Source: a virus. Taken from it: DNA of 31,654 nt. The stretch is from the UHGV virus genome UHGV-0150949. One strand, written 5' to 3'. Under the pieces are notes generated by a model. That model was not told the origin of the DNA and searched no databases. It saw only the letters and a list, made by a program, of their open reading frames with translations. A program made the translations under genes and the position numbers. Shown here one piece after another: positions 4,513-14,353 of this stretch; positions within the stretch are counted from its first letter, which is position 1; the number at the start of each line of letters is the position of its first letter.

Positions 4513-5949
4513 TTAAGTTAAACCAATTAATCCATGCCCGGTTGAAGCATGTAAGTCCTGAATTAATGCTGCAACTACCTTTGCTAAATCTTCGTGAGTT
4601 ATTGTTCCAGAGTTAAATGCTGCTCGGGATACGGTGCCGGTTGGCGATCCCCATCCCGTCCTCCTCTCTGAAATAACTTGATTGCCATTAAGTCGTATTC
4701 TTAAGTTGTTGAAGTTAGCCCAGTTCTCAGCCCTGTTGAAACTCAAATGTGTTGTATTTGCCGGGCCCGTTCCTACCGTAATTCGTTGATTGTCGCCCAT
4801 CAAAATTGCGCAGTTGTTTGAAAATCTAGCTTCAGAAAATGAAATTCCACTCCTAAAATAATTTGTTCTAAATCTAATGCCGTTTGCAGCTCCAGATGAT
4901 AGAGATCCCTCAAGTCTGATGTATTCGCCATTACCTACCTCGGTTAGTTCCTCTGTTGGAGTGGAAATAGAATTACCTCTAAACAACATTCCTGTCCAGA
5001 TATAACCATTTGGAGCTTCACTCCCTCTTCCGATGGTAATCATCTGTGTTACTGGATTGCTTTTATCCTGAGTTACACATACCAACCCTCTTACAGATCC
5101 TTGCAGTGCATTCTCCATCCATCCTTTATCGGGACCTCGATTATTCAGATTAAATTCATGTGCAATAGTGCTAATCGCTCCATTCTGCACTGCATCTCCT
5201 AATACTGCACCATATGACCACCCCCCCCATGTTTCGGCTTGCGGATTTCTTGATTCTCCACGCATGTGGTGACCAATTGAATGCCCATTCCCTCCCTCAT
5301 GCTTAGCAACACTTGTAGTTGTGCATGTATATGCACTTCCTGACACCTTGCGCAAAGAGTTATAAATTACCCCCTGATCCCATCGTTTGATGCCGTCATC
5401 CCTAGTTGCAGAACTAATTTTTTCCAGCCAAATAATGGGATCTGGAATTGGTGTTTCTGGTATGGAGAATCTCTGTCGTGTAGCATTTTTATATATGATA
5501 GTTTCATTGTTATAAATATTGTCACCAGCTGCATCTGAACCAGTCCATCCTGAGCCAGCATAAAAATTCTTAAGTCCATCACCAGACTGTCCAGTCAAAA
5601 CTACTCTTAACTGATCCGGGTCATACTTCAGCACATTTGGGAATTTGAACTGCTGTGCACCATACGCATCATAAACAGCCATAGAATGGCCTTGCTCAGT
5701 TACGAATTTGGCAATCTGTCCGTTATATACAGGGTAACCAGCGGCGTTAATGATGATTGGTTGCGAAACGGGAACATGAGAGCCGTCTTCGTTCTCTACA
5801 TAAACCTGAATCTGGTTTTCAGGATTTACTGGGTCAGTGTCAATTTTACCGATATAAATCTTTCCATTAGCTACGGCTTTAAAAGAACGAGCCATAGTGA
5901 AGAGTTGCGAAGGCATGCTGACTACAACATTGGCTGTAATGTCTGTCAT
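4513..5949 (-). CDS. tailspike protein: P22/Sf6-type N-terminal head-binding domain, divergent shorter C-terminal domain
   Basis: The first roughly 115 aa ([46 protein letters not shown]...VLKYDPDQ) match the P22 gp9 / Sf6 tailspike particle-binding domain as I recall it. The remaining roughly 360 aa are unrelated to the P22 beta-helix as far as I can tell. Confidence 0.9.
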
Positions 5950-6017
5950 TTAATTTGCTCCAGATACAAGGAATCGCCGCAGCATTGCCACAGTGATGCA
6001 TTATTAATCAAACAAAG

Positions 6018-6032
6018 AGACCACTGTGGTCT
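6018..6032. promoter_or_regulatory. candidate Mnt operator (perfect 7-1-7 palindrome AGACCACTGTGGTCT)
   Basis: Palindrome lies in the divergent intergenic region between tailspike and mnt. Resembles the symmetric Mnt operator type of P22 immI. A weaker related palindrome is about 30 bp upstream. Confidence 0.45.
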
Positions 6033-6095
6033 TATTGAGGATGCAACCAGCAGATAATAAGATGCCGATCCACTCACAAAAGCGAGGCATCAAGA

Positions 6096-6347
6096 ATGGG
6101 AAGAGATGACCCGCAATTTAATCTGCGGCTACCTTACGAATTAAAGGAAAAACTAAAACAGCGAGCCAAATCCAATGGCCGCTCTCTTAATTCAGAATTA
6201 GTTCAGATAGTTACTGATGCTGTATCAAAGCCATCCAAAATTTCAGGCTATCGAGACGATGCGGAACGCATCGCTGATGAGCAGTCCGAACTTGTTAAGA
6301 AGATGGTGTTTGATACGCTGAAGGATTTGTACAAAAAACCCACCTGA
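6096..6347 (+). CDS. mnt: Mnt repressor (ribbon-helix-helix, Arc/MetJ superfamily)
   Basis: 83 aa, very close to P22 Mnt as recalled (RDDPQFNLRLPYELKEKLKQRAKSNGRSLNSELVQIV...DEQSELVKKMVFDTLKDLYKK). GAGG RBS 9 nt upstream. Confidence 0.9.
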   Translation: MGRDDPQFNLRLPYELKEKLKQRAKSNGRSLNSELVQIVTDAVSKPSKISGYRDDAERIADEQSELVKKMVFDTLKDLYKKPT

Positions 6348-6446
6348 CGGTGGGTTAATTTTTGCATTTACCTGGGCCATATTGACTACTTATAAAATGA
6401 GATCAATATTTAATCGCCCAATAACGGGTGTATGTTGAGGTATATC

Positions 6447-6626
6447 ATGGCGAAAAAACCAGGTGAAAACACAGGAAAAAACGGCGGAATATACCAAGAA
6501 GTTGGCCCGCGCGGCGGTAAGAAAGACAATTTTGCCACCGTCAAGGACAACGAAAGGCTTCCACCAACAACAAAGCCAGGTCATGGCTGGGTATTAGATA
6601 AGCGAACTCCAGACAGCAAAAAGTAA
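6447..6626 (+). CDS. small basic Gly/Lys-rich protein (59 aa), unknown function
   Basis: Internal ATG (residue 6) of track ORF 6432..6626 with GAGG 6 nt upstream. Followed directly by a terminator hairpin. Confidence 0.55.
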   Translation: MAKKPGENTGKNGGIYQEVGPRGGKKDNFATVKDNERLPPTTKPGHGWVLDKRTPDSKK

Positions 6627-6630
6627 TAAT

Positions 6631-6656
6631 CAAGCCGGATCACTCCGGCTTTTTGA
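6631..6656. terminator. bidirectional intrinsic terminator (agccgga-tcac-tccggct)
   Basis: 7-bp stem with T-runs on both sides, between the convergent genes 6447..6626 (+) and 6640..7005 (-). Confidence 0.6.
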
Positions 6657-7005
6657 TATGTCGCTCGCAGAACTCAACAAGCCTGCTCATTAAGTAGCAG
6701 TAAGTCTCGTTGGCTCTTCCTGGTTCAACATCAACACCGACCCTTGAGCAGATATCGAATGCCATGTGAGCGCACTCATGGGCAATAGTAGATAGTTTGC
6801 CATTGAACACGCCTATCACATGCAAAACACCATTCTCGCTACTCATTGTATGAGACGCTCCGTTGGCGTCCGAGTCATGCACGTCAACGCCAAGTTTTTG
6901 ATGCAGGCGTTGCCATTCTGGAAAGTCTCTACAAAACACAATTGTACCGCTCTCAAAGAGCGGTACTAGCATCTTTGGTACGTTTCCAATGTTAACTTTT
7001 TTCAT
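6640..7005 (-). CDS. small HExxH-motif protein (121 aa), putative zinc metallopeptidase-like
   Basis: Track ORF. Contains HECAHM. AGGA 4 nt upstream of the ATG. No confident family assignment. Confidence 0.6.
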   Translation of the reverse strand: MKKVNIGNVPKMLVPLFESGTIVFCRDFPEWQRLHQKLGVDVHDSDANGASHTMSSENGVLHVIGVFNGKLSTIAHECAHMAFDICSRVGVDVEPGRANETYCYLMSRLVEFCERHIKKPE

Positions 7006-7039
7006 GGTATCCTGCGCAAAACTAAGGAGAGTTAATTAT

Positions 7040-7525
7040 ATGAAAAAATCACTGTTAATTATCCCGCTTCTGCTGGCTGGGTGCGCAAAAGTAAGCGACT
7101 ATCAGGCAAGTTGCGAGCAACGCTATCCAAAGCTTAGCGATATGGCTAATTGCCTTGATGCCAGCTTGAAGAACGACTCTCGCATGGCATCAGCACCAAC
7201 ACCTAAGCTGTATGTCCTTGCTGCGAAGATGCTCGGGCAAGGTGTCGATGAAGGCAAGATAAGTGACACACAGGCAAGACTTGAACTTCAGAATCTTTAT
7301 GTTCAATTACAAAGCCAAGAACAAGCCCAACAAATAGCGCAAAGCCAAGCATTCCAGCAGGCTTTATTGAATTATCAGGCTGTAAACACAATGCAAGCGA
7401 TCGAGCAAAAAGCGCGCCAGCCTGTTATAACTCAACCTTACCCAACACGCGTTGACACATATACAAACTGCAATTCAGGATTTGGAAACACGGTAACATG
7501 CAACAGTAGCAGTAATATCAGGTAG
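7040..7525 (+). CDS. lipoprotein (161 aa) with Q-rich coiled-coil-like region
   Basis: Internal ATG (residue 18) of track ORF 6989..7525, preceded by AAGGAGA. N-terminus MKKSLLIIPLLLAGC is a signal peptide with an LAGC lipobox. Antisense to the late operon. Confidence 0.7.
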   Translation: MKKSLLIIPLLLAGCAKVSDYQASCEQRYPKLSDMANCLDASLKNDSRMASAPTPKLYVLAAKMLGQGVDEGKISDTQARLELQNLYVQLQSQEQAQQIAQSQAFQQALLNYQAVNTMQAIEQKARQPVITQPYPTRVDTYTNCNSGFGNTVTCNSSSNIR

Positions 7526-7539
7526 TTATATCTTATCTT

Positions 7540-9387
7540 TTATTGCTGTTCTGCTGTAATTTGGCTTGAAAGTATAGGGCGTATCGCATTTGCAGCATTA
7601 TTTAGCGCTCTTTCATAGGCTGGCGTTCCTGCTTTGGTGTTTGCCAAACGTAAGAGAGCATTCCTTGCTGCTTTGGACTCATACAAGCGCATCATTGCAC
7701 CGAAACCAGCCTCAAGCCCCATTGATACGCCAAGAGTCGCAGTTGCGCCAATCGTCCTTATCCTGTTGGCTTGCGATTGCCCCGTCTGAGTTACTACATT
7801 TGCGGTGTCTGACCTTGCTGTTTGCTGTAGAACTTCATGAAGAGCATCAAGCTCTTTCATGTGCTTTCCAGAAAAAATAGTGTTGTAAATTTCACCGCCT
7901 GACTGAGATTTCAGCTTATTAACTTCAGTGATGAACTTGGCTGGAGAGTCACCGGATTTTTCCGCTATTTTGCTGACGTAAGCTGCACGCATAGCATCTT
8001 TCCCTTTATCATCCAATGCGCTCCAGATTCGTTTCACGTCAGATGGTTTTCTGCTTAATACAACGGTATTTATAAGTTCAGGACTGGCTTCACTGCTTGC
8101 CTTGTTGAGCTTGTTAGCAATGTTTTTATTAAGCACCTTATTATAAACGTTTGCATAATCGGAATTTGCTTTAAGGTATTTTGCTGCGTCTGATGCACCG
8201 AGGTTTTTAGCAACTGCGTTACGAAGGTCTTTTGACATTGCATTCTCTACCATATTGGTAGCTGCTTTTGCCTGGTTGGGGAAGACCATAGCATCTCCCT
8301 GAACATTAGATCTAAATGCTGTTCTGTGCTGACGCAAGAGATCAAACGTAACATCCAAATCAGTTGCAGGGTTTGCTAATTCTTCACGTAGGTTACGCAA
8401 GGATGTAAGCAGGCTTTGATTGGCAGATGTCCCAAGCCGTTCCTGTCTTGCGATCGCTGTATTCAGAGCATTCATGGTATTTGTGGTATCAACTGAGGCA
8501 TTACCCATTTTATTGGTGACGTCATTGATAACAGCGCCAGCGGCATCCTTCCGCCCCCTTAACGTGGTGGTCAGAGATTTCACCACATCATCAGGGTTGT
8601 ACTCACCAAAACGGTCAAAATAATTACTTACCAGCTTACTACGCGTTGCATATTGCTCAGCTCGCTTTGAGCCTGTCCCGAGCAAAGCCCCCTCGGCATC
8701 CTGAGTAAGGCCACGAGTGAAAGCATTTTTCGGTGGGATGACATCAGATGTCATTGGCGTCACACCCATTGATTCTGAGGTGGCAATTTTTTTCGCTACT
8801 TCTGGCGCGATATCGCCTTTTATAGCCGTTATTCCACGCCCTATTCCCTTTGCTGCTGCGGAAAGAACACCCTGAGCGGCAAGGTTAACTCCGGCATTTA
8901 TGGCTGCATTTTGCGCGAAATCACCTTTCTGGTTTGCGGCTTCTGCCAGTGATCCAATAGCCATGCTTCCTGCCGTTCCAACTCCTGGAACTAAATACCC
9001 GCCAATTGTTTCTCCAGCTTGCGCATAAGGGTCTGTCGGTCGATCGACAGGGCGATAAACATCATCCAAAACCTTGGGGCCACCAAGCCCCTGGCTGATT
9101 GCATTAATCAGACTTGCGCCACCCTGCAATACGTCAAATGGTATGTTTACCAGACCACGACCAGCCTGTTCTGCAATTTGCCCTGCACTTTGAGCACCTG
9201 TGAGCCAATCGCCAGCTTGTTGCATCAATGATGGTTCTTCACGTGCTGGTTCATTATTGGCCTGATTAACTGTTTGTTGCTGAACAGCCTGACCAGCAAA
9301 ATACTCATCAATGGCGGTGCCAATATCTTCCGTGCTCGTACCATCAGGGAAGGTAAATGTCTTACCGTTTGCAGTTACTTTCATCAT
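7540..9387 (-). CDS. DNA ejection/transfer protein, P22 gp16-like
   Basis: 615 aa, in the gp16 position and of gp16-like size (last gene of the ejection-protein triad). Confidence 0.8.
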
Positions 9388-12935: not shown

Positions 12936-14353
12936 TACTCGATCCTTATCTGGCAGCCTGACAGAGTGACAGGTGACTTCGTGATAACGCGCAATTTGAA
13001 GCCAACATTTTTCCTGATGCGCCCGACTCGCTTCCACAAAACACGTTTGTCGTAAACGAACGGTTCATTCTGTTCAATCATCTGCTCACGTCCGTAATTT
13101 ATGCCGTCAGTGGTTGCAGAGAGGAACAGGCGGTCGGCGTACTGCGCAACGCCAGTTGACGATTCAACCTCAAGATCGAACACTCTGGCGTTATCCGCTT
13201 TGAACAGAGGAGTAAACAGCAGATGTTCCTGTTGCTTGTCGTACTGGCTGCTGATATCGAATTGCAATTTCCCGGTCACCGATTCCAGCTTATCGCCGCA
13301 CGTTATCTGATTGCCTTCGTAAATGAAGTCGATAGCGCGGTACACATCGTCATACAAGCCTGTTTTCAGTACACACCATTGCGGACCATTGGCGCTTGAA
13401 GATGCGTCGTACACGAGGACGTGGCGCGGAAGGTGGATAATCAGCAGTTCATGCGCATCAAATCGCAGCGATTCCATCACGCCATCAGCAAGTTCATCAG
13501 CAGTGTAGGAGCGTAGTATTTTCTCAATGCTCGCGCTGGCGATTGGTGATACCTGACCGGAGCCGATGATATACACAGACGGAGCACCTGTTGCCGGATT
13601 GCTGATGAACGCATAGGAATCAGCGAATGGCGTTTTGCAATAGGTTCCGGCAATACCTTTCTGCACCATCAGCGATGGCTGTGCGACATACAAAGCGGCA
13701 CCAACGGTGGTTGCACCAGTCAGGGAAAAATACTCAATCGTCGATGAACCAAAACAGACGATGAAGTCTCGCCATGTTCCGATGCCAATGATGCCGTCAG
13801 GCTGAGACTCGGCACGATATTGTGCGCTGTATCGGTCAGGATGCGATTCGTCTTCAAGGTCAGTGATAAACCATGAATCGGTGCCGTCTTTTGACCACGC
13901 ATAACGCCCACGCAAGCGCGTAATGTCGCGAACCGAACCTAACTCATACTGAGTGAATCCGCTGTCTGCAGGCCAGTTTGAGACGGTTTTAACCGTGCCA
14001 TCATAGCGATACTCGACCAGTTGACCATTAACGCCTACAGCCTGAGATGTCCGACCATGTGCCATTGATACGCGACCACTTCCGGCAACATCACCGACTG
14101 CATTTTCTCCTTTGTACAGCTTGCCACCACACACGCGATAAACAGCACTCTGCGCCATGTTGTACTCGACGCCGCGCGATACACCGTTTACATCAGAGCG
14201 TTTGGCAATGCCCGGGAATGAGCGAAGATATCCGCTGCTGCTCAGGATTTCTTTGGGTGTAGCCAACATATTCACTGGCAGATAGTCGATATAGTCGGCG
14301 TTTCGAAAGTCTTTGCCGACACCTTTCATAAGCGGAAGTTGCTGAATCGGCAT
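12935..14353 (-). CDS. tail hub protein, P22 gp10-like
   Basis: 472 aa, by position and size. Confidence 0.85.

Follow-up and report, generated by a model that had tools for sequence, protein, structure and literature searches.

A predicted lipoprotein in the sieA slot and a conserved HExxH protein in the late region of a P22-like prophage

Genes between gene 16 and the tailspike gene

We examined a 31,654-nucleotide (nt) stretch of viral DNA, UHGV virus genome UHGV-0150949 (hereafter the window), which is a P22-like (Lederbergvirus) prophage whose late operon lies on the minus strand. Our subjects are two small genes that diverge across a 34-bp gap, between the gene for the last ejection protein and what is left of the immI region. 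One of them, read with the late operon, encodes a 121-amino-acid (aa) protein with the HExxH motif HECAH at residues 76-80, and the other, read against the late operon, encodes a 161-aa predicted lipoprotein. We find that the lipoprotein gene alone takes the place that sieA holds in phage P22, while the HExxH gene corresponds by sequence to hkcC of phage HK620, and P22 has this gene together with sieA. We read the region between gene 16 and gene 9 as an accessory region of independent swappable modules, and we give this reading, with the roles proposed below, an even chance.

In blastn comparisons, window positions 6096-7029 are collinear with P22 positions 14770-13837 at 92% identity; the match stops at 7029 and picks up again in gene 16. 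When the window, P22, HK620, and ST160 are aligned from the 59-aa gene orf59a through the HExxH gene, they are near-identical up to the Shine-Dalgarno sequence AAACTAAGGAG and unrelated right after it. P22 records place the sieA promoter (PsieA) at 13861-13891 on the minus strand, and the identical sequence is present in the window. With the P22 homology lost directly 3' of the common Shine-Dalgarno sequence, it is the lipoprotein gene alone that replaces sieA. An initial annotation of this DNA had put both small genes where P22 carries sieA, which holds for the lipoprotein gene but not for the HExxH gene: a tblastn search located in P22 a 99.2% identical open reading frame (ORF) at NC_002371.2 13861-14223, adjoining sieA. 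We therefore rejected the HExxH gene as a replacement of sieA, as P22 has both.

The ORFs, the hairpin, and the annotation of HK620 confirm the coordinates, the HECAH motif, the lipobox LAGC, the Gln-rich region, and the bidirectional terminator of the initial annotation (Table 1). Its placement of the lipoprotein gene antisense to late transcription also stands, since the gp16-like and tailspike genes are both on the minus strand. The 59-aa gene, a frequent convergent neighbor of the HExxH gene, is not mentioned there. Of immI, which the same annotation had called a remnant, only mnt is in fact kept; arc and ant are absent, and P22 14771-16156 has no window counterpart by blastn. The lipoprotein stop codon lies 14 nt from that of the convergent gp16-type gene.

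Window positions 6000-7600 are 100% identical to Escherichia coli EF5-18-41 (NZ_CP063492.1). The gp16-type gene shares 69% DNA identity with P22 gene 16, and its ORF is labeled a DNA transfer protein in the identical E. coli records. The tailspike gene matches P22 gene 9 at 71% DNA identity across ~340 nt; its ORF is short (478 aa), and its likeness to gene 9 is confined to the N-terminal head-binding region. As only this region is common to both, the receptor-binding part is of another type than that of P22. Scans against Pfam, NCBIfam, and PADLOC placed neither the HExxH protein nor the lipoprotein in a family, and their only library matches were PHROGs families without assigned function, in agreement with the initial annotation, which could assign neither protein to a named family. 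PADLOC gave no match for any of the four proteins scanned, and an Rfam scan of window positions 5800-8200 gave none either.

Table 1. Coordinates of features in the window
Feature	Position	Strand	Remarks
Tailspike gene	4513-5949	-	Late gene
mnt repressor gene, immI remnant	6096-6347	+	Pfam Arc, 79 bits; Repressor_Mnt, 66 bits
Terminator 3' of mnt	6337-6356		
orf59a homologue (P22 orf59a/HK620 HkcD)	6447-6626	+	59 aa, basic, Gly/Pro-rich; antisense to late operon; PHROG 3202
Bidirectional intrinsic terminator	6632-6651	both	8-bp stem; common to the convergent HExxH gene and orf59a
HExxH protein gene, HK620 hkcC homologue	6640-7005	-	121 aa; sense to late operon; PHROG 1365
Perfect 10-3-10 palindrome	6944-6966		Within HExxH gene; terminator-like hairpin flagged on minus strand
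Equivalent of putative P22 promoter PsieA	6975-7005	+	Within first 31 nt of HExxH gene
Shared Shine-Dalgarno TAAGGAG	7023-7029	+	Mosaic boundary of slot
Lipoprotein gene in sieA slot	7040-7525	+	161 aa; PHROG 6067, no function annotated
gp16-type DNA ejection (transfer) protein gene	7540-9387	-	615-aa ORF; last ejection gene of late operon

The lipoprotein and the slot it occupies

The lipoprotein begins with MKKSLLIIPLLLAGC, and under the pattern [LVI][ASTVI][GAS]C its lipobox is LAGC at residues 12-15. Its sequence has what is expected of a signal peptidase II substrate, namely a basic n-region, a hydrophobic core, and the lipobox, with the predicted cleavage between MKKSLLIIPLLLAG and C. 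A 178-aa reading of the ORF from position 6989 was set aside, since the Shine-Dalgarno sequence AAGGAG at 7024-7029 and the homologues fix the ATG at 7040. We found 90 homologues across Enterobacterales, none of them named, and the proposed signal peptidase II site is well supported among them: the lipobox is present in all of the full-length homologues (74/74), with G14 and C15 invariant. The +2 residue of the mature protein is Ala in 70/74, Val in 4/74, and Asp in 0/74. Given that Asp is never found at +2, we infer from the Lol sorting rule that the lipoprotein is sorted to the outer membrane. In addition to the Cys at the predicted lipidation site, the mature protein has four further Cys: C25 and C38, which no aligned homologue lacks, and a C-terminal pair, C144 and C154. 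This pattern fits two periplasmic disulfides.

The AlphaFold2 (AF2) model of the lipoprotein is of moderate quality, with a predicted local distance difference test (pLDDT) score of 64 overall and of ~80-85 for residues 20-90. It consists of a helical bundle (residues 18-100), a long Gln-rich helix, and a C-terminal beta-hairpin; the Gln-rich stretch (residues 76-127) is 31% Gln. Among 50 alleles we counted 99 synonymous versus 32 nonsynonymous changes, so that the ORF is real and under purifying selection. Profile scans did not tie the lipoprotein to any known exclusion protein: PADLOC and Pfam returned no match, and the PHROG match to Cor (E 0.09) covered only the signal peptide. The slot between gene 16 and hkcC, the antisense orientation, the promoter region, and the Shine-Dalgarno sequence are the same as for P22 SieA, and both products are envelope proteins of ~160 aa. 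The two proteins nevertheless have no sequence similarity (their tblastn matches in loci are separate and nonoverlapping, and the sequences are unrelated on inspection), and SieA is a polytopic inner-membrane protein, whereas the lipoprotein is predicted to be in the outer membrane with a soluble helical domain.

Several cassettes can occupy the slot. We surveyed the position equivalent to window 7030-7540 in 80 IMG/VR loci that have the HExxH gene (L003-L082) and found at least 11 unrelated cassettes there: the lipoprotein in 17 loci, SieA in 13, HkcB in 8, and at least 8 others. The latter include a 129-aa secreted protein (~11 loci) and transmembrane or secreted proteins of 62, 68, 75, 99, 106, 109, and 149 aa; one slot cassette is YobH-like. 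All of the slot cassettes have a signal peptide or a transmembrane segment, save one of 140 aa, which is without a hydrophobic segment.

The slot has well-studied occupants. For exclusion, a single copy of sieA preceded by 85 bp of its upstream DNA is enough; SieA acts by blocking injection, and mutations that escape it map to gp16 and gp20 (PMC10883804). At the same locus, the P22-like prophage BTP1 has the antisense RNA STnc6030, which is expressed in the lysogen and excludes BTP1 (PMC7067206). Given these two precedents, the slot is an established site of prophage-expressed protection functions, and the position and orientation of the lipoprotein gene fit a prophage-expressed exclusion or conversion function. 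The lipoprotein is a new, uncharacterized occupant of a known exclusion slot. The proposal of the initial annotation that both genes were candidates for exclusion or conversion accordingly survives for the lipoprotein, by its position and orientation, but not for the HExxH gene, whose sense orientation to the late operon makes it a poor candidate for an exclusion factor expressed in the lysogen.

Seen from the lipoprotein gene, the placement is just as constant. In 85/85 loci it is flanked by the tailspike gene and, convergently, by gp16, and this position and orientation are kept in the Providencia and Tatumella copies (50-61% identity), even with a gp16 that is just 32% identical. The proximal core CATG(G/A)TATCCTG...AAAACTAAGGAGAGTTAA upstream of the gene is kept in three architectures. 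On its other side these 85 loci vary: the HExxH gene is present in 17, a different lipoprotein gene holds its place in 16, and ~30 have neither. In phage vB_EcoP-720R6 (L001 4365-4784) and 16 IMG/VR loci, a 139-aa gene on the late strand replaces the HExxH/orf59a module; its product, 'Uncharacterized protein 15', is itself a lipoprotein with the lipobox LSGC and has a weak PEGA-domain match.

We found no convincing intrinsic terminator 3' of the lipoprotein gene (window 7525-7900), and further candidates were at chance level; the transcript therefore probably runs antisense into the 3' end of gene 16. Such an extension recalls the exclusion RNA STnc6030 of BTP1. On the upstream side, the palindrome at 6944-6966 (GTACCGCTCT-TTG-AGAGCGGTAC) lies 9 nt upstream of the -35 element of PsieA. 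Its outer stem positions differ in P22; it may serve as an operator or may be a coincidence of the coding sequence.

The HExxH family and its convergent neighbor orf59a

A profile search of the HExxH protein against 1.84 billion representative proteins yielded at least 546 clusters at E <= 1e-3, mostly stand-alone proteins of ~105-140 aa. The motif is found in 141/145 cluster representatives, and the four exceptions look truncated or frameshifted, save one that reads HKAAH. Among 108 aligned members at 23-78% identity, G49, H76, E77, H80, and E100 are invariant, G90 is conserved in more than 90%, Y104 in 96%, and N99 in 75%; the view that HExxH marks a conserved metal site is thereby strengthened. 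Some members are longer, at 173-194 aa (P0153, P0157, P0206, P0223, P0240, and mEp044 gp72, L087 4001-4585); we sought fused domains in these and found none, just basic, Lys/Glu/Ala-rich C-terminal tails that are probably disordered. The 37 alleles of the HExxH gene differ by 28 synonymous versus 5 nonsynonymous changes, and this ORF, too, is real and under purifying selection.

The AF2 model of the HExxH protein is confident, with a pLDDT of 89 and a predicted template modeling score (pTM) of 0.83. Its elements are strands at 11-13 and 21-25, a helix at 28-37, a hairpin at 49-66, a helix at 71-88 that bears HExxH, and a helix at 100-116 that starts at E100; this order is predicted to be the minimal zincin topology. 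E100 stands 20 residues after H80, and the resulting HExxH-x19-E spacing is that of thermolysin H146-E166. The protein thus shares with thermolysin-type gluzincins a helix-borne HExxH and a Glu 20 residues after the second His that begins the next helix, and Asn precedes Glu as in the thermolysin NExxSD motif. phmmer aligns HExxH...NE to the thermolysin active site at a nonsignificant E of 0.09. As in gluzincins and minimal zincin scaffolds, a beta-sheet and a backing helix are predicted before the active-site helix, at a size of ~120 aa. Minimal soluble scaffolds of this kind are known as 'minigluzincins'. We conclude from alignment and model that the HExxH proteins form a family in their own right, whose predicted metal site is of gluzincin type and for which catalysis is predicted, and the protein of the window is probably a true zincin-type metalloprotein.

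A likeness to SprT or ImmA, which the initial annotation had raised, found no support in any sequence test that we ran. In Pfam and NCBIfam, the window protein had no match, and 108 relatives run against Pfam gave only two weak SprT-like matches (best E 1e-4) and one DUF5700 match, with none to Peptidase_M78. In SprT-type zincins a His shortly after HExxH is the third ligand; the family has no conserved His after the motif.

The gene itself is not new. Besides P22, tblastn matched HK620 hkcC (labeled 'unknown') and SE1/ST160 orf64 at 98-99% identity, and these are the same gene with the same neighbors (orf59a and the bidirectional terminator). By this identity the HExxH gene is HK620 hkcC, a long-catalogued hypothetical gene and not a novelty of this prophage. 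Neither P22 RefSeq NC_002371.2 nor the curated BK000583.1 annotates a coding sequence over 13861-14223; only the sieA promoter and the mnt terminator (14212-14234) are annotated. A literature search on hkcC returned unrelated acronyms only, and a related-loci search from a single Klebsiella homologue gave no match.

Every temperate-phage context that we examined has the HExxH gene on the same strand as the late or structural genes: P22-like phages carry it downstream of gene 16, and mEp lambdoid phages after the lysis genes. Proteins that are 38-40% identical and have the same motif (ST64T Orf-129, phage L Orf129, epsilon34 gp70, and ST104 ORF47) are likewise encoded sense to the late operon; these paralogues differ in lacking an accompanying orf59a and in having the lysis cassette on one side and the dec and terminase genes on the other. 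In the longer of 38 metagenomic loci, the gene is most often directly upstream of ORFs sized like the small and large terminase subunits, an identity borne out in 4/4 loci sampled, one of which has an Rz-like spanin upstream. In four siphovirus prophages (Klebsiella oxytoca, Rosenbergiella, and two metagenomic), its neighbors are the tail chaperone region on one side and the tape-measure gene on the other. The family also extends to N4-like phages, where the gene is among clusters of small unannotated genes that we take, from general knowledge of N4-like genomes, to be early genes, and to a T7-like Aeromonas phage, where it is at the right genome end. The K. oxytoca sequence can be read as having a GC-rich hairpin, with a T-run after it, ~20 nt before the HExxH start codon. 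This hairpin and the 34-bp upstream gap of the window leave no room for an HExxH promoter of its own, and antiterminated late transcription is therefore the most economical explanation for expression of the gene.

The stop codon of the HExxH gene lies inside the hairpin at 6632-6651, which is terminator-like on both strands. HK620 annotation calls it 'bidirectional terminator tORF59A', that of P22 calls it the mnt terminator, and the Klebsiella and Rosenbergiella copies have hairpins at the equivalent place. The location of P22 orf59a, past mnt but ahead of the annotated mnt terminator, suggests that mnt and orf59a are cotranscribed. The orf59a product matches Pfam YjzC (PF14168) at 19.4 bits (E 0.0013), below the 25-bit cutoff, and a 43% identical Clostridium phage protein is labeled YjzC family; YjzC-like relatives are also found in phages of Brochothrix, Clostridium, and Streptococcus.

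A convergent orf59a homologue (60-78% identical), with a hairpin between, accompanies the HExxH gene in at least six distinct contexts, to ~40% HExxH identity. These are P22-like phages; the four siphovirus prophages; a 43%-identity relative beside a PhageMetallopep gene; four metagenomic loci; and two IMG/VR contexts, one with a very divergent zincin. In one metagenomic phage (L182-L183, 1330-1968 and 1229-1867), a 212-aa PF18894 PhageMetallopep, an unrelated second gene of HExxH type, comes directly after the zincin/orf59a pair. Other IMG/VR loci (L226-L239) have orf59a-like genes without a zincin, ~68-71% identical to the most distant orf59a copy, which served as the query. Some of these lone genes, when mapped, are antisense to their neighbors: that of L226 faces a lysis cassette, and that of L228 is beside a 680-aa protein.

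Possible roles and rival explanations

We explain the locus as two modules that are independent of each other, the sieA slot and the hkcC/orf59a module, and the balance for and against this explanation is about level. In the slot, the promoter and Shine-Dalgarno sequence would drive an interchangeable cassette against the late operon, here that of the 161-aa lipoprotein. The lipoprotein would be made in the lysogen, cleaved and lipidated at Cys15, and held at the outer membrane, where it would face the periplasm with two disulfides. There it may protect the envelope, likeliest by obstructing the conduit through which incoming P22-like phages deliver DNA across it, and exclusion of this kind would act at another envelope layer than the inner-membrane SieA. 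Cor (phi80/N15), Llp (T5), and Ltp (TP-J34), phage lipoproteins that block the entry of related phages, exemplify the type of mechanism that we propose. That the lipoprotein is a superinfection exclusion factor is possible, although we would place it somewhat short of even; some other role in envelope protection is a more doubtful reading of its predicted location.

The hkcC product would be a soluble minimal zincin and a metallopeptidase of the lytic cycle, its gene most likely transcribed solely by antiterminated late transcription that passes through the antisense cassette. The specific model that we favor takes its cue from phi80, in which the Tai defense and the Ati counter-defense have been described as a 'noncontiguous operon' (PMC11364771). 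There, a gene set expressed in the lysogen lies antisense within the late operon, beside a gene in the late sense that is produced only during lytic growth (PMC11364771); here, orf59a would be the antisense gene expressed in the lysogen and hkcC the gene in the late sense. We favor this model because the zincin travels with the convergent antisense orf59a, in resemblance to Tai/Ati: orf59a would encode a factor expressed by the prophage, and the zincin would be a late antidote or counter-defense by which this factor, or a related one of host or prophage, is removed. The systems differ in that the sense partner here is a predicted protease and Ati is a binding protein; we did not look for homology between them and expect none. 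By this analogy an antidote role against orf59a is conceivable, but we consider it unlikely. A reading that joins all of these elements is more unlikely again: hkcC and orf59a would be a mobile two-gene defense/antidote system, the slot a hotspot of envelope cassettes, and the lipoprotein an inhibitor of the podovirus conduit anchored in the outer membrane, with phages that have no lysogenic cycle carrying the zincin alone as an anti-defense protease.

A number of observations weigh against these proposals. PsieA is only a putative promoter, and a simple consensus scan did not flag it. In one further prophage (L179), the slot cassette scores 56 bits against Rap1a, a type VI immunity domain, so that the slot is not exclusively antiphage. 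Sequence and profile searches of the Protein Data Bank (PDB) with the HExxH protein gave only subthreshold matches to zincin active sites, and Foldseek found nothing significant in the PDB for the model. Among 80 near-identical loci, 11 have orf59a swapped for another cassette, 13/80 orf59a loci are without the zincin, and orf59a is absent beside most of the distant members of the zincin family. The context in N4-like phages further means that 'late' is not universal and that orf59a alone cannot be the target. The orf59a swaps (L005, L007, L044, and 8 others) begin a few codons from the orf59a stop, just past the bidirectional terminator, and their clean edges make the orf59a position a second swappable antisense slot.

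For the slot, other explanations were weighed. The lipoprotein could be a lysogenic-conversion factor apart from phage entry, either a periplasmic immunity protein against an interbacterial toxin (type VI effector, bacteriocin, or colicin) or a lipoprotein of the lambda Bor kind, for serum resistance or virulence; we regard this as doubtful. It is very unlikely that the slot owes its effect, in part or in full, to its plus-strand transcript serving as an antisense RNA on the gene 16 message, in the manner of STnc6030, and not to the lipoprotein. The precedent comes from the same locus, there is no convincing terminator after the lipoprotein gene, and its stop codon is close to that of gp16. 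Against this stand the 99:32 ratio of synonymous to nonsynonymous changes, the lipobox and Cys pattern kept to ~50% identity, and the lack of an Rfam match; given this selection and conservation, the gene is protein-coding first. The initial annotation had treated the HExxH protein and the lipoprotein as a unit, which would make them a novel exclusion or conversion pair substituting for sieA. The genes are indeed adjacent and divergent and have the 34-bp intergenic region in common, but in P22 the HExxH gene is found alongside sieA itself, its coding strand is that of the late operon, the lipoprotein gene of phage 720R6 has a different neighbor, and the two co-occur in just 17/85 lipoprotein loci and 17/80 HExxH loci. 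We rejected the functional pair on this synteny and would be most surprised if it proved correct.

The HExxH protein is very unlikely to be an ImmA/IrrE- or SprT-type protease that cleaves a phage repressor such as Mnt or C2 in the immI switch. The window protein matches neither Peptidase_M78 nor SprT and has no third-ligand His after the motif; in most contexts it is without an adjacent helix-turn-helix partner, its neighbors being structural, lysis, or terminase genes or orf59a; and the family is found far from immunity regions, in N4-like and T7-like phages and siphovirus tail clusters, with paralogues between lysis and terminase genes. The identity as an ImmA/IrrE-type antirepressor was rejected on these grounds (no profile match, no helix-turn-helix partner, and occurrence far from immunity regions). 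A rival that we find as improbable as the antidote role is a general anti-defense or host-takeover protease that acts on a host protein, the linkage to orf59a then being a hitchhiking moron arrangement around a shared terminator. It would account for the distant members that lack orf59a, the family members in N4-like and T7-like phages and directly upstream of terminase genes in many late operons, and the orf59a-like genes that occur alone. However, the convergent pair is kept in at least six contexts and two phage morphotypes, to ~40% identity, which is beyond chance neighbors, and the data point to no host target.

If neither the conduit nor the antidote proposal is true, the two are ordinary hypothetical moron genes. 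We regard the locus as of moderate interest, since it belongs to a model phage setting and the proposals are directly testable. P22, a reference model phage, holds a conserved and selected zinc-peptidase-like gene that its reference annotations omit and that is unstudied, and the hkcC family to which this gene belongs comprises several hundred clusters in temperate and virulent phages. The slot, with its at least 11 interchangeable envelope-protein cassettes, is a list of candidate exclusion and immunity proteins for which the work on SieA is a ready genetic system. A zincin that proved to neutralize orf59a would be a case of prophage self-immunity by proteolysis, and a lipoprotein found to block the conduit from the outer-membrane side would add to SieA a second probe of the way in which short-tailed phages traverse the periplasm.

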